A stretch of 64,000 bases of DNA from Candidatus Woesearchaeota archaeon (GTDB lineage: Archaea; Nanobdellota; Nanobdellia; Woesearchaeales; BM511): positions 9,382-73,381 of the forward strand of contig PKTL01000069.1 in NCBI GenBank assembly GCA_002867475.1, in the 5' to 3' direction. The notes beneath the pieces were generated by a model, which was given only the letters and a program-made list of their open reading frames with translations, made no database searches and was not told where the DNA came from. Both the position numbers and the translations under genes were made by a program. Below are positions 8,720 through 55,963 of this stretch, in pieces (the stretch's first letter is position 1; every line of letters begins with the position of its first letter).

Positions 8720-10000
8720 ATGAGTAAAATAAAGCTAAACCACATATGCAAAATTGAAGGCCATGCCAATCTTGAATTAGAGATAGAAGGTAACACCATA
8801 AAAAAATGCCATTTAGAAGCGGCAGAAGGTGCAAGATTTTTCGAAGGAATAATTATTGGGAAAAAATATGATGAGATCACAGAAATAGTAAGTAGGATCT
8901 GTGGCATATGTAGTGTGGGACACACAGTAACAAGCCTAAAAACTATAGAGACAGCATTTGGGATAAATGTGACAAGACAAACCGAAGTTTTAAGAGAATT
9001 ATTAACTATGGGTGAAAGGATTAGAAGCCACGCAACACACCTATATTTTCTATGTTTGCCAGATTATACGGGGCATAGCAGTGCCATCGAAATGGCATCA
9101 AAATATAAAAAAGAAATAACTAGAGCCTTGAACTTAATAAAAACAGGCAATAAATTGGTTGAGATAATAGGTGGAAGAGAGATGCATCCGTTCACATCAG
9201 TCGTTGGAGGATTTACACGTTCAATTTCGGGTGAAGAAAAAAATAAATTACTGACAATGCTAAAACAAGCATCGTTAGATGCAGCAAAAACTTATGAATT
9301 ATTCTCTAAAATTGTATATCCTTCTTTTGAAAGATACAGAGAAAACATATCTTTAAAGCAATTTGATGGATTTCCATTATTAGAAGGAACTATAATATCT
9401 GATAAAGGAGTTTCTTTACAACCTGATAAGTATCAGGAATTCTTAAAGGAATCTTTCAATATATATTCAACAAGCAAATTTGCGCTGCGAGAAGGTAAGG
9501 AATTTATGGTTGGTGCACTTCCAAGAGTGAATAATAATTTTAAACTTTTATCAGGAAACTGTGAAAGGCTCATAAAGAAAAGTAGGATAAGATTCCCTAG
9601 CAAGAACCCTTTCCACAATCTTATTGCACAAAGTCTCGAATTGGTACATTGGATAGAACATGCTATAGATCTATTAAGCAGAACTGAGTTTTTCAATGAA
9701 GTCCCTGTGGAATTTAAACCTAAGAAATGCAAAGGGATAGCTGCTACGGAAGTTCCAAGAGGCATATTATATCACCATTATGAATTTGACAATAAAGGTT
9801 TTGTCACTAAATCAAATATAATAACTCCAACGGTTCAAAATCTTAAAACCATGGAAAAGGACATAAAAGAATTTGTTCCAAGCTTACTACATAAGAAAAA
9901 AGAAGAAATAATATTGGATATAGAAAAATTGATACGGGCATATGACCCTTGTTTTAGTTGTAGCACGCATTTTCTAAATGTAAATTGGAAAAGGAGTTAA
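8720..10000 (+). CDS. hydA: [NiFe]-hydrogenase large (alpha) subunit, copy 1
   Basis: L1 RICGICSVGH, L2 DPCFSCSTH with C-terminal extension. Confidence 0.95.
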   Translation: MSKIKLNHICKIEGHANLELEIEGNTIKKCHLEAAEGARFFEGIIIGKKYDEITEIVSRICGICSVGHTVTSLKTIETAFGINVTRQTEVLRELLTMGERIRSHATHLYFLCLPDYTGHSSAIEMASKYKKEITRALNLIKTGNKLVEIIGGREMHPFTSVVGGFTRSISGEEKNKLLTMLKQASLDAAKTYELFSKIVYPSFERYRENISLKQFDGFPLLEGTIISDKGVSLQPDKYQEFLKESFNIYSTSKFALREGKEFMVGALPRVNNNFKLLSGNCERLIKKSRIRFPSKNPFHNLIAQSLELVHWIEHAIDLLSRTEFFNEVPVEFKPKKCKGIAATEVPRGILYHHYEFDNKGFVTKSNIITPTVQNLKTMEKDIKEFVPSLLHKKKEEIILDIEKLIRAYDPCFSCSTHFLNVNWKRS

Positions 10001-10777: not shown

Positions 10778-12038
10778 AAAAATTCAAATAGATTATATAA
10801 CAAAAATAGAAGGCCACGCAAAATTATATGTAAAAATAGATGAGGGTATAGTAAAAGATGTTCGTATGGAAGTTTTTGAAGGTGCAAGACTTTTTGAAAG
10901 CCTTCTCATTGGTAAAAAATATGACGAAGTCCCTATAATAACTTCAAGGATCTGCGGGGTTTGTCCTCAAGCACACAGCATAGCATCAATTGACGCAATC
11001 GAAAAAGCATTTGGTCATGTACCTAATAAATCAATTGAGACACTCAGGGAATTATTATTGATTGGTCAAATAATTAAAAGCCACACATTACATCTTTATT
11101 TTTTAGCTTTACCTGATTTTTTCAATAAGAGAAGTGTAATAGAACTTGCTAAAGAACAAAAAGAAGTGTTGAATCTTGGCATAAGATTGAAGAAATTAAG
11201 TAATGAGATTACAACAATCATTGGTGGAAGAGAGATACATTCAATAACAAATATTCCTGGAGGATTCACAAAAGCGCCAACTGATGAAGAATTGACCACT
11301 CTTCAAAAAAATATAAAATCTTCTTTGGAAGATTCACTTGAAGGAATAAAGCTTTTTTCATCATTTAGCGTTCCTGACTACTCCAATAAAACAGAATATC
11401 TTTATTTGAAAAAAGATGAAAATCCAAATGTTAAAGGGACTGTGATCTGCAGCGATAATATATGTAATTCTGTTGAGAAATATGCTGATTTGATGAATGA
11501 GTTTGTCGAAGAATATAGTAGTGCAAAACATGTCACTATTGGAGAAAAAAGCTTTTTTGTTGGAGCACTTTCAAGAATAAATCAAACACTTATCCCTGAT
11601 GATATTAAAAAAATTCTAGATAAAAATAGTATACTGTTTCCAAGTTATAACCCTTATTACAATAACCTTGCACAATGTATCGAAATCCATATATTACTTC
11701 AAAAAGCTAAAGATCTCATCAAAAAAATTGATGTTGGAGAAGTATTTCATCATAAGATCACTCCAAAGAAAGGAAAGGCAGTAAGTGCATTAGAAGCGCC
11801 AAGAGGGATATTATTTCATGAATATTCATTTGATGATAAGGGTTATGTGACAAAAGCAAATATAATAACTCCAACAACTCAAAATTTAAAGAACATGGAA
11901 AATGACATCATGAAAATATTGCCTTCTCTGCTCGATAAACCTGAAGAAAAGATAAAGTTTGAACTGGAAAAGCTGATTAGAGCATATGATCCTTGTATCA
12001 GTTGCTCAACTCATTTCTTAGATGTCATTTGGGAATGA
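10770..12038 (+). CDS. hydA: [NiFe]-hydrogenase large subunit, copy 2
   Basis: L1 RICGVCPQAH, L2 DPCISCSTH. Confidence 0.95.
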   Translation: MVKKIQIDYITKIEGHAKLYVKIDEGIVKDVRMEVFEGARLFESLLIGKKYDEVPIITSRICGVCPQAHSIASIDAIEKAFGHVPNKSIETLRELLLIGQIIKSHTLHLYFLALPDFFNKRSVIELAKEQKEVLNLGIRLKKLSNEITTIIGGREIHSITNIPGGFTKAPTDEELTTLQKNIKSSLEDSLEGIKLFSSFSVPDYSNKTEYLYLKKDENPNVKGTVICSDNICNSVEKYADLMNEFVEEYSSAKHVTIGEKSFFVGALSRINQTLIPDDIKKILDKNSILFPSYNPYYNNLAQCIEIHILLQKAKDLIKKIDVGEVFHHKITPKKGKAVSALEAPRGILFHEYSFDDKGYVTKANIITPTTQNLKNMENDIMKILPSLLDKPEEKIKFELEKLIRAYDPCISCSTHFLDVIWE

Positions 12039-12218
12039 TTCTAAAATAATTAAAAGAGAAGATCTGCGATGGATTATGAAAATTCATACATATTTTCCAT
12101 TTTTTCAAAATGAAAAACTACAATAAATTCATTTATTGATGAATTTAAGCATCTTTCTCTAAAAGAGAAAGATATATAAATCTAATACTCTATAAAACTA
12201 TTAAAAATAGGTGATTTT

Positions 12219-16185: not shown

Positions 16186-16297
16186 TAGCGGGGAGAGGAT
16201 TTGAACCTCCGACCTCCGGGTTTCTTGATCTCTGATCGAGAATTCGACCTTGGAGATATATGAGCCCGACGGGCACTCCTAGCTGCCCTACCCCGCT
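16186..16297 (-). tRNA. tRNA-iMet(CAT) with 37-nt intron (16222-16258) at 37/38
   Basis: AGCGGGG acceptor, GGG/CCC anticodon stem, CAT at 16260-16262, GGTTCAAATCC T arm. Confidence 0.92.
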
Positions 16298-40733: not shown

Positions 40734-40753
40734 AACTAACATCGCTGTTACAT
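40734..40753 (-). repeat. Site S1, collapsed attC-like mini-site
   Basis: AACTAAC-ATCGCT-GTTACAT. Confidence 0.7.
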
Positions 40754-41321: not shown

Positions 41322-41341
41322 ATGTAACATCGCTGTTAAAT
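41322..41341 (-). repeat. Site S2, collapsed attC-like mini-site
   Basis: ATGTAAC-ATCGCT-GTTAAAT. Confidence 0.7.
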
Positions 41342-41497
41342 ACTCCGAGTCCGAGTTTAACTTGAACTTTAGTTCTAAGATTAAACGAAACGAGAGCGCA
41401 ACGGGACAAGGAGCGACTAGCGACGCAGAGTAAATTAGAGTCTTATTCTTCAAAAGAGTGAAACGATGCATTGAAGCTAACTTAAAAGGGCAATTTT

Positions 41498-41800
41498 TTA
41501 TTCAAATTTGATATTTTCATATTTTTTAAGATGTTTAGAACTATGCTTATATACAACATCATGATGTTCATAATCAACAAAAAATACGGTTCCGTCATCT
41601 CCAAAAAATAAAATTACATAAGAATTATTCACATGAACACGTTTAAATTTCTTTAAATCTTATGAAAGATTTTTATAATGATATAAATTATCTGAATTTA
41701 GAATTTCATCTCTTTTATTAAGAATATTTTGAAGCTCTTTTCCTTTAAGCTTCTTAAGAGCTTTCTTGAAAAGATTGCCATATTTTCTTTTTCTCATCAT
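41498..41800 (-). pseudogene. relE: RelE-family toxin with premature TAA at 41660-41662 (cassette B)
   Basis: Manual translation MMRKRKY...HYKNLS*DLKKFKRVHV...YVILF...DYEHHD.VY; similar to 42512-42775. Confidence 0.8.
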
Positions 41801-42045: not shown

Positions 42046-42133
42046 AATATTATATGATATTACATAATATTTAAAACTATCGCTTAATCTTAAAAAATTG
42101 CCCATTTTCAAAAAAAAGACTCTAATTTATTGT

Positions 42134-42159
42134 ATTTAACATCAGGATCGTTGTTAGTC
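42134..42159 (-). repeat. Site S3, short attC-like site
   Basis: ATTTAAC-ATCAGGATCGTT-GTTAGTC. Confidence 0.65.
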
Positions 42160-42287: not shown

Positions 42288-42515
42288 ATGAGTATAAAAT
42301 CTTTTAACGTCGATGAAGACACATATGGGAAATTTTCCTCTTATTGTAAAGAAAATGGGATAAGTATGAGTAAACAAGTGGAAACCTTCATGAAATCAAT
42401 GATTGAAGAAGATCCACAAGTGAAACAAGAATACCTAGAAAAATTAGAAAGAATAAGAAAAGGAAAATTCGTAAAAGTAAACAACTTTGCTGAGAGATAT
42501 GGATTAAAAGAATGA
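42288..42515 (+). CDS. RHH antitoxin (cassette C)
   Basis: KSFNVD...F..YC...G..MSKQVE; ATGA overlap with the toxin. Confidence 0.8.
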   Translation: MSIKSFNVDEDTYGKFSSYCKENGISMSKQVETFMKSMIEEDPQVKQEYLEKLERIRKGKFVKVNNFAERYGLKE

Positions 42516-42775
42516 GTTATGAACTTGAAATCCATGAAGATTTAGATAGAACTTTTTCTAAACTTTCAAAGAAAAATAAGAAACAATTAGAAATAATCTT
42601 CAAAAAAGTTGATGAAATTCTAAAAAATCCATATCATTACAAACCTCTTCGTGGAGACATGAAAGGTTCAAGAAGAGTTCATATCGATAAACACTTCGTT
42701 CTAATATATGAAATTCTTAAAGAATCAAAAGTTGTTCGATTACTAGACTATAATCATCACGACAAAGTTTACTAG
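42512..42775 (+). CDS. relE: RelE/YafQ-family toxin (cassette C)
   Basis: NP.HYKPLRGDMKG.RRVHI...VLIY...HHDKVY. Confidence 0.9.
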   Translation: MSYELEIHEDLDRTFSKLSKKNKKQLEIIFKKVDEILKNPYHYKPLRGDMKGSRRVHIDKHFVLIYEILKESKVVRLLDYNHHDKVY

Positions 42776-42797: not shown

Positions 42798-42886
42798 AAC
42801 TAACATCGCTGTTAAATGAGGTTTTCTGATAAGAAAATCTGGAAGAGCGCCGAGCCGAGGCGCGAATCATTTAATCGCTGTTAGAC
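42798..42886 (-). repeat. Site S4, full attC-like hairpin (89 bp)
   Basis: TAAC-A-TC-GC..TTAAATGA...TCATTTAA..GC-T-GTTA with two internal sub-hairpins. Confidence 0.85.
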
Positions 42887-43007
42887 GACCCGAACCATAC
42901 AAAGTGAAGGTGAGAGCGCAGCGTGGCAAGAAAATCTATGATTTTCGCAGAGTTCTTTTGTTTGCCCGTACATAAATTTAAATAGTTACTTTGAATTAAT
43001 AATTATA

Positions 43008-43850
43008 ATGGTTTCACTTAATAAATATCTTAATATTCTTCAAAGAGGAATTGATAACTTTATTAGTTTTGAATCTAATTCAATTTTAGAGAAAAAACAA
43101 TTCCAAGCTAATTTTAATAGTGATGAAATTGAAAAAATCATCGAAGTAATTGAAAATCAAATCAAAATCATAAAAAAAGCGATTAAGCATGCAGATTTTT
43201 ATCGAATTCATCTTGAAGTTATGAATAATAAAGAACTTGTTGCATACATGGAAATTAACAAGAGAGTTCCATATTTTGAGTTCCGTTATAATCAAGTTTT
43301 TTCTCAACAAAAAAAAGTGATGGAGAAAAGATTAAAAGAATTAAGTAAAGAACAATCTAAAGCAATCAGTTCATGGAATTCAATAATAGGAATCTTTAAT
43401 ATATTCTGCAACGAATCATTACATTTACTAAAAAAACAAAGAAGATATTTAGAAAAATATGAAAAAAATCCTGCAAAATATACAAAGAAAAGTTTGGGAA
43501 ATAAAATGAGGAAATTTCTTAAAAATGACTTTGAAGGATTATTAAAAATTGAGGAAAAATTATTTTTAACTGTTCTTTATTCAAGTAAAAAAGAATCAGA
43601 GAATTTGAGAGAATTTGGTAAGGAAATTGAAAAATTATTACATTTAGAGGAATTCAAAATGTATCCTCATATCCCTGGTTTAGTCCTAAACATTTTTCCT
43701 GAGGCAGGTTTATCAGATATAGCATCTGCACCATTTCATGCAGCAGGATTTTTTCTTAGTATAATTCAAAGAACCAACAAATATTACAAAGAGTGGAACG
43801 AATTCATTAAAGATAATGCTTTAAAGAGCAAACAAAAGAATTTTGTCTAA
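43008..43850 (+). CDS. Hypothetical helical protein (cassette D cargo)
   Basis: 280-aa ORF whose TAA stop lies in the GTCTAAC core. Confidence 0.75.
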   Translation: MVSLNKYLNILQRGIDNFISFESNSILEKKQFQANFNSDEIEKIIEVIENQIKIIKKAIKHADFYRIHLEVMNNKELVAYMEINKRVPYFEFRYNQVFSQQKKVMEKRLKELSKEQSKAISSWNSIIGIFNIFCNESLHLLKKQRRYLEKYEKNPAKYTKKSLGNKMRKFLKNDFEGLLKIEEKLFLTVLYSSKKESENLREFGKEIEKLLHLEEFKMYPHIPGLVLNIFPEAGLSDIASAPFHAAGFFLSIIQRTNKYYKEWNEFIKDNALKSKQKNFV

Positions 43851-43933
43851 CATCGCGATTAAGAGAAGTTATTTTGCAAAAATAATTTGGATGAGGGCGC
43901 TGCAAGGCCCGAATCTCTTAATCGCTGTTACAT
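43845..43933 (-). repeat. Site S5, full attC-like hairpin (89 bp)
   Basis: TAAC-A-TC-GCGATTAAGAGA...TCTCTTAATCGC-T-GTTA. Confidence 0.88.
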
Positions 43934-44043
43934 ACCCCGAAACAAAGCTTAACTTGTCGAAGACTAAGATTAAGCGACTTGAGAGTGCAACGAGGTCGAG
44001 AATTTATGAAATAAATTCGAAGAAGTTTTGTTTTTAGCGCCGT

Positions 44044-44298
44044 TTACAATTTCTTGTAAACCTTGCTTCGATGATCTGCATGAATGACATATATAATCAA
44101 TTTATTATCTTCAATGTCAGCGATTACTCTGTAATCTCCAACTCTTAATTTATATTCAGAACGACTTGATAATTTTACAAAGTAATGATGAGGGTTTTCT
44201 TTTGTTTCTTGAAGCTTCTTAAAAATTCTTTGAGAAATGTCTTTAGGTAATTTTTCTAAATATGTTGATACTTTTTCATCGAAAACTAATTCATACAT
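44044..44298 (-). CDS. relE: RelE/ParE-family toxin (cassette E)
   Basis: ENP....KL....YKLRVGDYRVI...HR..VY. Confidence 0.92.
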   Translation of the reverse strand: MYELVFDEKVSTYLEKLPKDISQRIFKKLQETKENPHHYFVKLSSRSEYKLRVGDYRVIADIEDNKLIIYVIHADHRSKVYKKL

Positions 44299-44299
44299 T

Positions 44300-44539
44300 T
44301 TACAATCCTAATCTTTTAGACATTTCTGCTTCAGAAACTAAATTTCCTTGTTTGATACGTGCTCTTGCTGCTTCAATAGCTTCAATAGTTTCTTTACTAA
44401 GCTCAGGTTCATCTTTAACATGTTTTACAATATGAACTAGTTTAGTAATCACTTCATCATAACTTTCATTACGATATTCTCTAAATTTATCAAGTTCGGA
44501 CTTTGTCCCGTCATGAATTTTAATAGTTGTCGCAGTCAT
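44300..44539 (-). CDS. Antitoxin (cassette E)
   Basis: TTIKI...K..L...ESYDEVI..L; directly upstream of relE. Confidence 0.8.
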   Translation of the reverse strand: MTATTIKIHDGTKSELDKFREYRNESYDEVITKLVHIVKHVKDEPELSKETIEAIEAARARIKQGNLVSEAEMSKRLGL

Positions 44540-44626
44540 TTTATATCACCTTTGAGTTTACTTCAGTATACCATAGTAAACTAAAGTATATAAATGTATG
44601 CTTTAAGGCGCTAAAAACAAAATTGT

Positions 44627-44688
44627 ATGTAACTTCGGGTTTTGACGAAGTTTTTCGTCAGAAAAATTTTGTTTAAACCCTGTTACGC
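44627..44688 (-). repeat. Site S6, attC-like hairpin (62 bp)
   Basis: GTAAC-T-TC-GGGTTT...AAACCC-T-GTTAC. Confidence 0.8.
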
Positions 44689-44969
44689 GAACCGAAAGCC
44701 TTTTGCTGAGGGAAGTTTTTGCTCGTGCTAATCTTAGTCAGACATACAATAATATATTATTATACTATGTATAATATATTATGTATGGTCTAGACTATCA
44801 AGATTAGTAGCACAGGAGTCAAACCTCCTTAGCACACAAAAAGTCTTAGTTCGAGCTCCACAGGGCTTGAATTTCGTAAAAAACTTTTTACGATGACTAT
44901 TTGCTTCTGAAATCGAAGCAGGCAAAAGCTATGCTGCTATTTTGTGCTAGAGCAAAAATTTTGCGTAAC
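44682..44969. other. Gene-less, highly structured cassette F
   Basis: No ORF in the track; nested inverted repeats across its length. Confidence 0.75.
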
Positions 44970-45056
44970 ATCGCGATTAAGAGAAGTTATTTTGGAACAA
45001 AATAATTTGGATGGAAAAGTCTGCAAGACTTTGGAATCTCTTAATCGCTGTTAGTT
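44963..45056 (-). repeat. Site S7, full attC-like hairpin (94 bp), close relative of S5
   Basis: Same outer stem as S5; different inner hairpin (AAAGTCTGCAAGACTTT). Confidence 0.88.
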
Positions 45057-45137
45057 TCTTCTGATAAGAACGAGGAATAACTGCAAGTGGTTTTTGACGA
45101 AGTCAAAAAATTCCGAAGAGTAATTTTTAGCCCCCAT

Positions 45138-45557
45138 TCAATATCTTTTAGTAATATAAAGAGTAGCTTTAAAATTATCAATATCTCCAGTTGAAAGAAA
45201 TCTACTTTCTAAACTTGGACCTAAGTATAAATTAGAAGTTTTATCAGCAGTAAAATTAGGCACTGGCATAATTCCTGCACACCCCATATACCCATCTTTT
45301 AGCTTTAATAATAAATCTTCTTCAGGTTCATCAAATTCAACCCCTGTTTGACTTAACATAAAATCAACTGGCGTAGAATAATTTTCTGCAAGTGAATATA
45401 ATCCTCTTCCAACAATAAAAATTGGACCTGTCATCACGATATGTTGAGGATTAAAAGGCATATCCTCTCCAGACATCATTCTTTGTGAGATTTCATTTCT
45501 CATAGATTCAATTGCAGCTTCAACAAAACCCATATGAATTGCGTTATTATCTTTCAT
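45138..45557 (-). CDS. Hypothetical protein (cassette G cargo)
   Basis: 139-aa ORF filling the cassette. Confidence 0.7.
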   Translation of the reverse strand: MKDNNAIHMGFVEAAIESMRNEISQRMMSGEDMPFNPQHIVMTGPIFIVGRGLYSLAENYSTPVDFMLSQTGVEFDEPEEDLLLKLKDGYMGCAGIMPVPNFTADKTSNLYLGPSLESRFLSTGDIDNFKATLYITKRY

Positions 45558-45622
45558 AAAAAGTGTAACTACTAAATAGTTTATATACTTTTCTTTTTTT
45601 AAAGGGGGCTAAAAATTATTGT

Positions 45623-45708
45623 AACTAACATCGGAATTTAACGAAGTCGCCGAAGGCGATTTGGGAAAAATGCGAGCCGAGCATTTTTCCGTTAAATTCC
45701 TGTTAGCC
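45623..45708 (-). repeat. Site S8, full attC-like hairpin (86 bp)
   Basis: CTAAC-A-TC-GGAATTTAACG...CGTTAAATTCC-T-GTTAG. Confidence 0.88.
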
Positions 45709-45941
45709 GACCCGCAGCTACGAGCGATGTTTTGAGCGGAGTGGCAAGGGCAAGGTTTAACTTGCTTGCAAGATTAAACCGCAGAGTTTTCTTACTGCCG
45801 AGAACTAGATAGGTGCCGTAGTTTTAACTTACTTTAGAAAAATCCTATACATAACGAGTGAAACGAGACAAATTAGTTCGCTAGAACTGGGGGCGTTCTT
45901 AAAAAAAATATTTTATGTTTAATAATTCATGAATTATTTTA

Positions 45942-49250: not shown

Positions 49251-49496
49251 ATTTTAAGAACGCCCCTTTTTATTTTCTTTTTTTTCTAAAGTAAGTTAAA
49301 ATTTGGGTGGAGTGCGAGGTTTTCTCGTGCGTAACCGTTAAACATTTGTTAGATACAATCTTTCCAATGTATATTATACGAAGTTTTTTCTAAGCCTTCT
49401 CCTCTATGAGAAGAGCTTTCCCTTTTAACGAAGGCACCTACCTTTTTAGATTCCCGGGCACGTTTTGTCGTCTACAAAAGGCAGTAAGAAAATTTT

Positions 49497-49540
49497 GGCT
49501 AACATCTTTTAGGTGAATTTTTATGAGAATAAAAGATGTC
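49497..49540 (-). other. Candidate attI-like primary recombination site
   Basis: Minus strand CACCTAAAAGAT-GTTAGCC; last core before the integrase, with no closing GTTA box. Confidence 0.6.
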
Positions 49541-49596
49541 TTTTATTTTTAAGTTAAAACCCAGTTTTAGGTTTTGATATGTTTTTTGCTAAAGAC

Positions 49597-49797
49597 TTAT
49601 TTGTCTTTAGCGTGGCTGAGAAGCTCTTCATGGAGAAGCTCAAGCTTTTCAATTGTTCTTATGTGCATGTCTTTCATGACTGCGAACTGATATTTTTTAC
49701 TATTGTCTTTTTTTAGTAGCCAGTTCAACTTATTTGATAATCCTATTATTAGATCTTCATATTGTGTTAAGAGTTCGATTGCTTGTTTTTTATTCAT
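49597..49797 (-). CDS. Small hypothetical protein pointing into the array
   Basis: 66 aa, GAGGTGAT RBS at 49803-49810. Confidence 0.6.
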   Translation of the reverse strand: MNKKQAIELLTQYEDLIIGLSNKLNWLLKKDNSKKYQFAVMKDMHIRTIEKLELLHEELLSHAKDK

Positions 49798-49824: not shown

Positions 49825-49950
49825 CACTGGACAAGACAGCTCATGTAACCTTCGATTATGAAATAATCGATTGGTTCAATGAATGTTGTTGCAGTCCTGC
49901 TTTGTTATCGAGGTGAATTGAATAAAAATAGAGGCAGTGGACACTGGACA
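49825..49950. repeat. CA(C/G)TGGACA repeats, left cluster (49825, 49935, 49942)
   Basis: Same motif as the 51974-52042 cluster. Confidence 0.6.
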
Positions 49951-50014
49951 TAGTCAAATGAGATTTAAAAATCATAGATAACATTTAAATAATATGAGTG
50001 GCTATAAATTGAAT

Positions 50015-50233
50015 ATGACAAAATACACGGCATTTATACAAAAAGATGAAGATATGTATGTTGCTACATGTGTAGAACTTGGCACGGTTAGTCAAGGATA
50101 CACGGTTGAAGAAGCATTAGATAATCTAAAAGAAGCAACCGAACTTTACCTTGAAGAAATGCCAGGAGAAGAAGTTTCTGATTATTCTTTTACTACCACT
50201 TTTGAAGTTGGTGGTAAAAGTGTTAAAGCTTAA
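50015..50233 (+). CDS. hicB: HicB-family antitoxin
   Basis: YVA.C.EL...SQG.T.EEAL.NL.EA.ELYLE. Confidence 0.9.
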   Translation: MTKYTAFIQKDEDMYVATCVELGTVSQGYTVEEALDNLKEATELYLEEMPGEEVSDYSFTTTFEVGGKSVKA

Positions 50234-50450
50234 AAAAATTTCTGGAAAAAACTGTGTTAAACTAATTTGTAATAAGTTCAGTTTTAAATATGTTAGGCAA
50301 TCTGGAAGTCATATAATTCTTAAAAAAATAAGTGGAGATACCACAATTACTTGTGTTGTTCCTAATCATTCTGAAATTAAAATTAACACTCTGAAAGGAT
50401 TATTAAAACAAGCAAAAATTAGACAAGAGGATTTTATAAAATATCAATAG
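50220..50450 (+). CDS. hicA: HicA-family toxin
   Basis: RQSGSH....VVPNH.EI...TL...LKQA; GTG start after GGTGG. Confidence 0.88.
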   Translation: MLKLKKISGKNCVKLICNKFSFKYVRQSGSHIILKKISGDTTITCVVPNHSEIKINTLKGLLKQAKIRQEDFIKYQ

Positions 50451-50460
50451 AGGTGATAAA

Positions 50461-51237
50461 ATGAATGTGTCAAAAATAATATTTGATAAATTGTTTATTC
50501 AAGGTTGTAGTATGAAAACCATAACTGCTTATGAATTGCAGCTAGAAAAGTTTCTTGAGTGGGTTGATAAGCCTCCATTAAAAGTCAAACAAAAAGATAT
50601 TGAAGAGTATACCAAATATCTAAGAAGAAATGATTATGCCCATTCAAGTATTAGGCTTTCCCTTAATGCTATCAAATATTATTTTGTGAAAATAATGAAG
50701 AGAAGGTTTGAGATTTCCATGCCTAAAAAACATGAGAAACACACAGGCGTTTGTGATAGAAATGAGATTGTTGAAGCAATTGATAATTTAAGAAATCCAA
50801 AGCACAAATTACTTCTTGCATTGCTATATGGTTCTGGTGTTCGTGTTAGTGAAGCTGTAAAGATTAGGCATGATGATATTTTTGATGATTATGCAGTTAT
50901 CAGGCAAGGTAAAGGAAGTAAAGATAGAAAGATAATAGTTTCTGATATTTTTCTAGAATTATATGAACCTTTTAAAAAAAGAAAAGGTTTTGTTTTTAAT
51001 GGTAGAAATTCTCATTTGACTGTTAGAAGTGTTCAAGAGATAGTTAAAAAAGCGTTTAAGGATAGACATGTTCATCCTCATATGTTAAGAGCAAGTTTTG
51101 CAACGCACCTTTACGAGTCAAGTGTTGATAAGCATAAGATCCAAAGATTACTTGGTCATAAGGATGTGAGAACTGTTGAAGTTTATACTAAGTATTCAAA
51201 GTTCGATCCAGAAGTTAAAAGCCCTTTAGATATTTAA
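50461..51237 (+). CDS. Tyrosine recombinase, integron-integrase-like but without the IntI-specific insertion
   Basis: LLYGSGVRVSE, GKGSKDR, HMLRASFATH, LLGH, VYT; C-terminal KSPLD. Confidence 0.93.
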   Translation: MNVSKIIFDKLFIQGCSMKTITAYELQLEKFLEWVDKPPLKVKQKDIEEYTKYLRRNDYAHSSIRLSLNAIKYYFVKIMKRRFEISMPKKHEKHTGVCDRNEIVEAIDNLRNPKHKLLLALLYGSGVRVSEAVKIRHDDIFDDYAVIRQGKGSKDRKIIVSDIFLELYEPFKKRKGFVFNGRNSHLTVRSVQEIVKKAFKDRHVHPHMLRASFATHLYESSVDKHKIQRLLGHKDVRTVEVYTKYSKFDPEVKSPLDI

Positions 51238-51289
51238 AACATTTAAAAAAACAATAAATTTAAATATTTAGATTATCTAAATGTTTGCT

Positions 51290-51553
51290 ATGGGAACTAT
51301 AACTGTAAATGTATCGGACGAGACTGAAAAAATGTTTAGAGAAGCTGTAAAACAAAATATTGGAATAGGAAAGGGGGTCCTCGGAAAAGCTATAGGCGAA
51401 GCTATGAATATGTGGGCTGAAGAAAAAGAAAGAGAAGAAAGAAGAAGAAAAGCTATTGAAAGACTTGAGAAAGGATTTGATTTAGGGAATTTTTCTTATA
51501 AGAATAGAGAGGAATTATATGGAGATAGATTTAAAAAGTGGGATAAAAAATAA
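51290..51553 (+). CDS. VapB-like antitoxin
   Basis: MGTIT.NV...E..FR...W; GF.LG...REELY; upstream of the PIN gene. Confidence 0.75.
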   Translation: MGTITVNVSDETEKMFREAVKQNIGIGKGVLGKAIGEAMNMWAEEKEREERRRKAIERLEKGFDLGNFSYKNREELYGDRFKKWDKK

Positions 51554-51971
51554 TATTGAGAAAAAAGTTTTTATTGACACTAATATTTTTATTTATGCTT
51601 ATAATAATGAGAATTCTAAAAGAAATATTTGCTTGCAGATTGTTAAAAACTTATTTAAAAATAAAATTTCATATATAAGTATTCAAACATTAAGTGAACT
51701 TTCTAATGTTCTATTACACAAAATGAAATTATCCAACTTGGATTTAAATGAAGTTATATATGAATTGGTCGAATTTGGAAATCTTTGTGAAATTAAATCA
51801 AGCACAATTATTAAAGCAATAGATATACATAAAAAATTTAAGATTCATTTTTTCGATGCACAGATTGTTGCTACTATGATTCAAAATGGTGTTGATACAA
51901 TATATACTGAAAATGTGAAGGATTTTTCTAAAGTTCCTTTTATTAAAGCTATTAACCCTTTAGATATTTAA
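51519..51971 (+). CDS. vapC: VapC PIN-domain toxin
   Basis: FIDTNIFIY, FFDA.I.A, IYTEN.KDF, NP. Confidence 0.88.
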   Translation: MEIDLKSGIKNNIEKKVFIDTNIFIYAYNNENSKRNICLQIVKNLFKNKISYISIQTLSELSNVLLHKMKLSNLDLNEVIYELVEFGNLCEIKSSTIIKAIDIHKKFKIHFFDAQIVATMIQNGVDTIYTENVKDFSKVPFIKAINPLDI

Positions 51972-51972
51972 G

Positions 51973-52042
51973 CCACTGGACACTGGACACAACGAAGAAA
52001 TTGTTTCTTCGAGCATCCACTGGACAAAAAGTCCACTGGACA
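51973..52042. promoter_or_regulatory. ORB-like repeats (TCCACTGGA/CACTGGACA x4) upstream of cdc6, candidate oriC
   Basis: Copies at 51974, 51981, 52018, 52034; the core resembles the archaeal ORB TCCAnTGGA. Confidence 0.55.
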
Positions 52043-55832: not shown

Positions 55833-55963
55833 TAATATTTGTTAGGGCACGGCGCCTTAGAAAATTTCAAACACTAAAAGCAAAAAATTGCTTTTTTGCA
55901 CAGAAGTTTGATAAACTTCTTGTGAATGAAATTTTGCGCCTCATTTGGCGCTAACAAATATTA
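55833..55963. repeat. Intergenic multi-hairpin (REP/MITE-like) element
   Basis: Outer IR TAATATTTGTTAG/CTAACAAATATTA with internal hairpins. Confidence 0.6.

Follow-up and report, generated by a model that had tools for sequence, protein, structure and literature searches.

A candidate integron-like gene-cassette array upstream of a Xer-type recombinase gene in a Woesearchaeota archaeon

Introduction

Among described systems, the gene-cassette arrays of integrons come closest to the locus reported here. In the cited passages of two studies (PMC9668308; PMC8946536), cassettes stand in tandem and are bounded by attC sites, imperfect palindromes of the plan R''-L''...L'-R' with AAC/GTT cores, one arm longer than the other and a variable terminal structure. 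The R' bases of a site belong to the next cassette, toxin-antitoxin (TA) genes are common cargo, and the array is located upstream of the gene for a tyrosine recombinase and adjoins a primary site of a distinct kind. The same features are found in a stretch of 64,000 nucleotides from Candidatus Woesearchaeota archaeon (assembly GCA_002867475.1, contig PKTL01000069.1, forward-strand positions 9,382 to 73,381), which is called the window below and in which all positions count from its first nucleotide. It contains nine sites (S1 to S9), including the bulged hairpins S4 to S8, and the gene of a Xer-type tyrosine recombinase (xer). Judged from the sequence, S4 to S8 are likely to be the recombination sites of an integron-like gene-cassette array that is anchored upstream of the gene of this XerA-like recombinase.

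The differences from integrons concern the enzyme as well as the sites. The integron enzyme is IntI, which has an insertion, whereas the enzyme at this locus is Xer-like and lacks it. The spacer of attC is unpaired according to the cited part of PMC8946536, and here it is paired. The asymmetry of attC resides in G/T bases in or beyond the L box, in contrast to a TC dinucleotide in the spacer here. Compared to attC, the sites have a longer conserved core, and a GC-rich module and a cassette-specific stem, P1, are added. In contrast to integrons, the open reading frames (ORFs) have no common orientation, and the recombinase gene has the same orientation as the bulge strand. The prevailing view is that recombination in integrons requires an IntI-specific domain that reads the extrahelical bases of attC.

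Several other systems share the Xer enzyme with this locus. Integration of CTX-phi, reportedly described by Val and colleagues in 2005, involves Xer recombinases that act on a folded, single-stranded hairpin of the phage. The likeness to this IMEX element comprises the Xer enzyme, a folded strand mimicking a two-arm core with a non-canonical centre, and the exchange of one strand, which is proposed below also for the array. The CTX-phi case concerns phage genomes, bacterial dif and XerC/D, whereas the elements here are small cassettes with promoters, arranged in long tandem arrays and accompanied by a single archaeal Xer. The pdif sites are duplex XerC/D sites of alternating orientation on plasmids; the sites described here, in contrast, are all direct, folded and chromosomal. 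Common to both is that gene modules, in Acinetobacter often TA or accessory genes, are bounded by Xer-type sites (cited passages of bioRxiv 10.1101/2024.04.09.588662). Xer-mediated integration at dif is described for IMEX elements, and XerS/difSL and some archaeal xerA/dif pairs consist of one Xer gene with its site directly upstream, as in the window (cited parts of PMC5357621; Cortez et al., 2010, PMC2958812). One arm of difSL is a base longer than the other, which has been linked to cleavage bias, but the sites of these pairs are, in the same passages, single duplex sites for chromosome dimer resolution, neither arrays nor hairpins. No description of Xer-linked cassette arrays was found in literature searches.

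Results

Nine plus-strand sites between positions 40734 and 49540 divide the region into cassettes. Folded as single-stranded DNA, S4 (42798..42886), S5 (43845..43933), S6 (44627..44688), S7 (44963..45056) and S8 (45623..45708) have a common structure, in which TAAC(A) pairs with (T)GTTA and is followed by a two-base bulge and then by a stem of 6-12 bp. The bulge is TC in the 5' arm of the plus strand and GA in the 3' arm of the minus strand. With lengths of 62-94 nt and TAAC/GTTA cores, the five sites are imperfect palindromes of the form AAC...GTT that fall into the range of 50-150 nt and can fold as single strands, as is characteristic of attC. The L stem is GCGATTAAGAGA in S5 and of the same type in S7, S8 has GGAATTTAACG, that of S4 is imperfect and contains two mismatches, and the short site S6 has the stem GGGTTT/AAACCC with a T.T mismatch adjoining the TC bulge. 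S4, S5, S7 and S8 are capped by two terminal sub-hairpins. Compared to 200 dinucleotide shuffles per site, the fold z-scores of the plus and minus strands were -3.75/-4.23 for S4, -4.04/-4.12 for S5, -3.33/-2.51 for S6, -6.20/-6.85 for S7 and -6.78/-6.87 for S8. A chance origin of the sites is excluded, because TAACWWCG...CTGTTA is expected 0.00 times in shuffles.

An earlier note, made from the sequence alone, had proposed attC-like hairpins at S4 to S8. All five were recovered at its coordinates upon folding of both strands (z -2.5 to -6.9), the arm pairs that it quoted proved to be exact, folding reproduced the two terminal sub-hairpins of the long sites, and the sequences of S4, S5, S7 and S8 have the stated TAA-TTA distances of 8 nt versus 6 nt. 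Its view that the sites resemble attC in plan (R''-L''...L'-R', TAAC/GTTA) and bound cassettes also held. As a description of the extent of the system it was right about the five hairpins, but it overlooked S1, S2, S3 and S9, the modules, the pairings across cassettes and P1.

The sub-hairpins of S5, S7 and S8 and the modules (e.g., 45016-45026 and 45646-45656) contain many small stems with the three-base loops GCA or GAA, for example GTCT-GCA-AGAC, GCC-GAA-GGC and GAC-GAA-GTC. GNA triloops form unusually stable DNA mini-hairpins, and by analogy these loops would fit a fold of DNA rather than of RNA.

The remaining four sites differ from this type. S1 (40734..40753, AACTAAC-ATCGCT-GTTACAT), the array-distal site, and S2 (41322..41341, ATGTAAC-ATCGCT-GTTAAAT) are reduced sites without a hairpin that consist of two inverted arms around a 6-bp spacer, and S3 (42134..42159) is a short site with an interior of 12 nt. 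The interiors of reduced sites range from 6 to 13 nt, and in sequence these sites look like deletion products. S9 (49497..49540, plus strand) is the terminal, xer-proximal site; its hairpin (ACATCTTTTA...TAAAAGATGT) is free of bulges, the TC being paired, and has GTCT instead of GTTA. ATT(G/T)-xxxx precedes each site. The flank motif TT[GT]T[AG]NNTAAC[AT]TC[GA] matches 11 times in the 1.67-Mb assembly, eight matches being S1 to S8, and a scan of the whole assembly with this motif revealed no further copy of the site elsewhere.

The ends of the cassettes are complementary to one another. Every GTTA is followed by bases that are reverse-complementary to those preceding the next TAAC; for example, GTTACATAC following S5 matches GTATGTAAC preceding S6. 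Read by eye at the eight junctions of the window, 35 of 40 variable positions are complementary between GTTA(n) and TAAC(n+1). In the relatives introduced below, 19 of 26 consecutive site pairs match at at least 4 of 5 positions, compared to 200 of 2000 random pairings; the automated tally of relative pairs misread S4 and missed S6, and its window rows understate the true agreement. R'(n) hence matches R''(n+1), as at the boundary of an attC-type cassette.

A second pairing, P1, lies outside the sites. Each site is followed by a GC-rich module of 45-95 nt, which contains small hairpins and ends with CG(A/C)AGAG, and the 12-17 nt that precede ATTG-xxxx-TAAC pair with a stretch after the module of the previous site. 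The resulting P1 stem of 12-17 bp is possible only on circularisation of the cassette. All modules considered here lie on the plus strand. The module after S4 (42887..42965) ends with CGCAGAG, and its P1 3' strand at 42951-42965 pairs with 43828-43841 before S5. For the module after S5 (43934..44041) the P1 3' strand at 44024-44041 pairs with 44608-44625 before S6, and for that after S6 (44689..44728) 44714-44728 pairs with 44944-44959 before S7. The module after S7 (45057..45135) is linked via 45119-45135 to 45604-45618 before S8, and the module after S8 (45709..45799) via 45785-45799 to 49480-49494 before S9. On the xer-sense strand, the order within a cassette is thus hairpin site, module, P1 strand, cargo ORF(s), other P1 strand and ATTG-xxxx-TAAC. 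When the ends were joined in silico, 7/7 window cassettes tested folded into P1, a 9-bp R stem and the hairpin. Across genomes, an exactly complementary run of at least 10 nt was found in 22 of 32 cognate pairs versus 17 of 600 non-cognate pairs. P1 and the arm bases differ between cassettes and yet are complementary, which favours the folded single strand of a circular cassette over a duplex site. A probable function of P1 is insulation of the fold against the cargo.

The distribution of related sites was analyzed with the strict pattern TAACATCG-N9-GAAGT in a sample of 401 genomes of the same order, three of which are flagged as unpublished. The pattern is present in 117 of the 401 genomes, and the reversed pattern matched in far fewer places. 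The conserved core is ATTG-N4-TAACATCG...CTGTTA, and a few L-arm sequences, e.g., CGATTAAGA, GAATTTAAC and GGCTTAAGG, recur across distant families. In 40 unique sites from 29 loci, 95.9% of the pairs of the 11-bp L stem are Watson-Crick pairs, compared to 20-40% in slid controls, and two to four pair types occur at 10 of the 11 positions. The earlier note had claimed a paired spacer, and this applies also to the relatives: the A-T pair is present in 40/40 sites, followed by three positions with Watson-Crick pairing in 34, 38 and 40 of 40, respectively. The extrahelical bases in or beyond the L box of ordinary attC are absent; the L stem is free of bulges, and the sole extra bases are the spacer dinucleotide.

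That the TC is invariant, however, was too strong a statement. In a set of 46 unique hairpin sites, collected by means of the upstream flank only, ATC follows TAAC in 43, and the 5' arm exceeds the 3' arm by two bases in 43, statistics that are biased towards TC, because 38 of the 46 sites match the ATCG-containing seed pattern; of the eight sites free of this bias, five have ATC and six the two-base asymmetry. The exceptions comprise a CA bulge (locus L186), a TAT bulge (L026), the terminal site of L186 and one mis-paired call, and a TCC bulge occurs in L206. TC is therefore the rule, but it is not invariant.

Further candidates were discarded. Scanning genome contigs with ATTGTANNTAACATCG gave, among the matches listed, one real case in 120 stretches (L144, a Candidatus Woesearchaeota metagenome-assembled genome), with adjoining DNA fetched for 80; the other matches were chance matches in bacteria. 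In viral contigs, none of 23 pattern matches had a hairpin or the flank motif, and there is thus no evidence in them for a viral vehicle. A loose flank pattern in 61 genomes was too unspecific for counting arrays.

The position of the arrays relative to xer is a recurrent one. Twenty array loci were fetched by the site pattern, and eight of them contain a xer homologue. In seven of these eight loci, as well as in the window, the array is located upstream of xer, and the TC strand is the coding strand of xer. The opposite approach started from 29 loci chosen by Xer similarity alone. Upstream of xer, the flank motif occurs 13 times on the same strand (29.0 kb, in 11 loci), though about three of these matches look spurious, and it is absent from the opposite strand; downstream it occurs four times in 43.5 kb. 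The contig breaks off no more than 900 nt before xer in 14 of the 29 loci, which would be expected if repeats broke the assembly there.

The arrays end with a distinct and conserved type of site, ATTG-xxxx-TAACA(C/T)(C/G)T(A/T)T..., termed the terminal site. It was found 10 times in 598 kb, always upstream of xer and on its strand, at distances of 94-962 nt (7/10 within 235 nt). It forms a symmetric hairpin, and the counterparts of the bases that bulge out in cassette sites are paired in it (...GATGTTA or ...GGTGTTA). The TAAC-TTAA spacing is 5 nt in both arms of terminal sites, in contrast to 7 nt in the 5' arm and 5 nt in the 3' arm of cassette sites. Its loop varies in length from 6 to 26 nt, and a duplex dif at the centre of the palindrome was rejected for this reason. 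In L186 (G243:C19) the array is interrupted by an assembly gap, a run of N at 11995-12093 that is enclosed by two copies of the same site start and immediately precedes the terminal hairpin; the last cassette of this locus is therefore uncertain.

The recombinase gene (50461..51237, plus strand) begins 960 bp past S9. It encodes a Xer-type tyrosine recombinase of 258 amino acids without the IntI insertion, recognized with PF00589 and the XerA model. The assembly searched for recombinases has a size of 1.67 Mb and is 95% complete. PF00589 detected three genes, which have XerA-model scores of 171.8 bits (the window gene), 89.9 bits and 66.2 bits, and the latter two encode phage-type integrases of 226 and 391 amino acids. 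The window gene is the only Xer-like recombinase found in the assembly, and no IntI is present among its three tyrosine recombinases according to PF00589 and model scoring. The best solved relative is XerA of Pyrococcus abyssi (4A8E), which is collinear over residues 11-246, and the residues of the catalytic motifs are conserved in the alignment of structural relatives. The integron-integrase model TIGR02249 yields 132 bits in two separate stretches, compared to a cut-off of 265. In the alignment with VchIntIA (2A3V), query residues 171-185 stand opposite IntI residues 181-245. The adjoining recombinase thus has 15 residues where VchIntIA has 65, and the insertion specific to IntI is absent, as the earlier note had expected.

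Discussion

The array probably works on the integron principle, in a new form that has a different enzyme and a different site grammar. In the mechanism that we propose, cassettes would leave and enter as circles, and in the circle one strand would fold into P1, the 9-bp R stem and the hairpin. The R box (xxxxTAAC/GTTAxxxx) and the L box (NTTWA) would each be occupied by a recombinase monomer and would take the roles that the two arms have in a normal double-stranded Xer core site. With the TC looped out, the R and L boxes would be 5 bp apart, as they are in the terminal site. The partner for the exchange of one strand would be the terminal hairpin, which has no bulge and a fixed position next to xer, in analogy to the reaction of attC with attI. 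Extra bases are present on one arm only, and the two complementary folds are therefore non-equivalent. In this model the one-arm extra bases are likely to be the basis of strand choice and of the exchange of one strand only, and a role of the TC as strand selector is plausible.

The crossover is placed, with a slight preference, at the TAAC side of the xer-sense strand (TAA|C), on the basis of three sequence comparisons. The terminal hairpin keeps its place beside xer, whereas the sequence to its left is as variable as the end of a cassette. In L195 and L189, the copies of duplicated units agree completely from TAAC to the end of the module and differ ahead of TAAC. A cassette common to two genomes loses homology right after TAACAT. 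A second cassette shared by L034 and L192 is uninformative, its boundaries having decayed. With a crossover at TAA|C, the xer-sense strand would correspond to the bottom strand of integrons, and the bulge would be in the arm that is cleaved, at a distance of two bases from the cleavage point. In classical attC the extrahelical bases are on the other arm than the cleaved one (cited part of PMC8946536).

Apart from the seed bias mentioned above, several observations weigh against this interpretation. S1 to S3 have no usable hairpin, and hicAB and 960 bp separate S9 from xer in the window. Among the loci fetched by pattern, 12 of 20 have no xer in the DNA covered, many of them ending at contig ends, and G037 contains only a truncated site, 15 kb from xer and on the other strand. 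The score of 171.8 bits is below the curated cut-off of 220 of the archaeal XerA equivalog NF040815. The xer gene may also be a housekeeping XerA that merely adjoins the array. The orientation of cargo ORFs is 30 versus 21 in 51 intervals (some ORFs are spurious), i.e., there is no bias, unlike in classical integrons, and because both orientations occur, expression from a common promoter is unlikely. Lastly, the hairpin type is unlinked to R'' (4/97 pairs) and to R' (6/97 pairs), and in the absence of a hairpin-flank linkage the assignment of the crossover side is thus based on the three cases only.

An explanation that would need no new enzyme is that the sites form an ordinary integron cassette cluster (CALIN), the classical IntI being encoded in the unassembled 5% or in another organism and Xer being a bystander. 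The R''/R' plan with TAAC/GTTA fits the attC consensus, TA cargo is typical of cassettes, and the cited parts of Ghaly et al. (2022, PMC9668308) report both the use of archaeal attCs by IntI1 and six Woesearchaeales genomes with 2-12 attCs and no IntI; some arrays of the kind described here may therefore be filed as CALINs. The difference between these six genomes and the 117 of 401 that match the strict pattern is at most an indirect hint as to how the sites would score as attC. We nevertheless regard this explanation as quite unlikely, because the 95%-complete assembly has no IntI among its three tyrosine recombinases, the position and strand of the array relative to xer recur in unrelated genomes, and an unpaired spacer and L-box extrahelical bases are lacking. 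The motifs of the array were absent, on the strand searched, from the attC sequences in the examined part of Data S9 of Ghaly et al. (141,366 characters). The recurrent linkage to xer also bears on the view that the elements are structured RNAs or intergenic hairpins like repetitive extragenic palindromes (regulatory elements, terminators or targets of HUH transposases) and are unrelated to cassette exchange. They are indeed GC-rich, well folded and intergenic in a genome of 30% GC (the window has about 30% GC), but this view leaves the linkage and the cassette-spanning pairings unexplained. Moreover, all sites are on one strand though the cargo ORFs point both ways, the elements are confined to one genomic locus instead of being dispersed, and Rfam, which holds no attC family, gave no relevant match at E up to 1. 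The sole weak match, STnc210 at 49576-49701 (24.5 bits versus a gathering threshold of 100, E 0.3), is outside all sites. Such an origin of the hairpins is thus very improbable.

If Xer is accepted as the enzyme, the sites might still act as double strands, as in tandem IMEX elements or the pdif modules of Acinetobacter. TAAC-ATCGCT-GTTA would then be the duplex site and the terminal site would be dif, the hairpins being incidental or decaying. S1 and S2 comprise precisely a pair of inverted arms with a 6-bp spacer between them, the window gene is the only XerA candidate, and adjacency of gene and site is known for XerS/difSL and some archaeal xerA/dif pairs (cited part of PMC5357621). The form of a single duplex dif, two arms of about 11 bp and a 6-bp spacer, is seen in S1 and S2, yet nine sites are present. 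The L stem covaries, and so do the arm bases and P1, though the sequences of the latter two are not conserved; a duplex site has no need of such covariation. The reduced sites have interiors of 6 to 13 nt that look like the result of deletions, and loops of 6-26 nt in terminal sites leave no constant duplex spacer at the centre of the palindrome. Duplex recombination is therefore an unlikely explanation for the array, and its interpretation as an integron-like system with folded single-stranded sites is preferred.

A further-reaching version of this preferred interpretation can be put forward tentatively, as a possibility that we would not yet call probable. A single XerA of the housekeeping type might double as the integrase of a gene-capture platform in an order of the DPANN archaea. 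The primary site, which might be dif itself, would be the conserved bulge-free hairpin that precedes xerA by about 100 nt, and recombination of the cassettes would take place on folded single strands. Strand choice would be governed by a dinucleotide bulge, two bases away from the scissile phosphate, in place of the code of I2 helix and extrahelical bases. Such a system would represent an independent or an ancestral solution to the problem that integrons solve.

The same cassette logic as in integrons is found here with a plain Xer-type enzyme and another mark of asymmetry, and it is widespread, the strict site pattern being present in 117 of the 401 genomes of one archaeal order. If the interpretation is true, the arrays offer a second, simpler model of structure-specific recombination, and they bear on the question of whether integrons arose from Xer/dif. 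A major route by which DPANN archaea exchange genes would then also appear to escape standard searches for attC and IntI.

Additional Features of the Locus

The cargo of the cassettes is diverse. An antitoxin-like ORF and a ParE-family toxin gene (42288..42775, plus strand) precede S4, and an ORF of 280 amino acids without a Pfam match (43008..43850, plus strand) follows it. Between S5 and S6 a ParE-family toxin gene and a DUF7557 antitoxin-like ORF are located on the minus strand (44044..44539), and an ORF of 139 amino acids without a Pfam match (45138..45557, minus strand) lies between S7 and S8. The cassette from S6 to S7 has no ORF. It contains a near-perfect, AT-rich palindrome of about 90 nt at 44729-44860. 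In the cassette from S2 to S3, a second R''-like box ATTGAAGCTAAC and a nested inverted repeat GGGCAATTTTTT / AAAAAATTGCCC surround the TA genes (41469-41505 and 42095-42112), and this sequence arrangement suggests a composite or a decayed double cassette.

The neighbours of xer are hicAB on one side (49994-50450) and, on the other side, a PIN (VapC-like) gene with a small ORF upstream of it (51281-51971). No cassette-type site was recognised between hicAB or the PIN gene and xer. Six copies of CACTGGACA bracket the hicAB-xer-vapBC block (49825-49950 and 51974-52042). There are 31 copies of CACTGGACA over many contigs of the assembly, 25 of them elsewhere, and they are often doubled as CACTGGACACTGGACA and then followed by TTGTC...TGAG. 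The copies around xer were rejected as att sites because of this genome-wide dispersal; CACTGGACA is a dispersed repeat or regulatory box and not specific for the locus.

Beyond xer, at a distance of 4.6 kb, the sequence AATATTT-GTTAGGGC ... GCGCTAAC-AAATATT (55836-55960) resembles a pair of cassette ends in permuted order, with GTTA first and TAAC last. The ends are about 110 nt apart and small hairpins lie between them; the pair may represent a solitary empty cassette that occupies a secondary site. On the minus strand at 16186-16297, a tRNA gene that was missed by ARAGORN was detected with the Rfam model (46.3 bits). Its length of 112 nt indicates that it probably contains an intron, which fits an archaeon.

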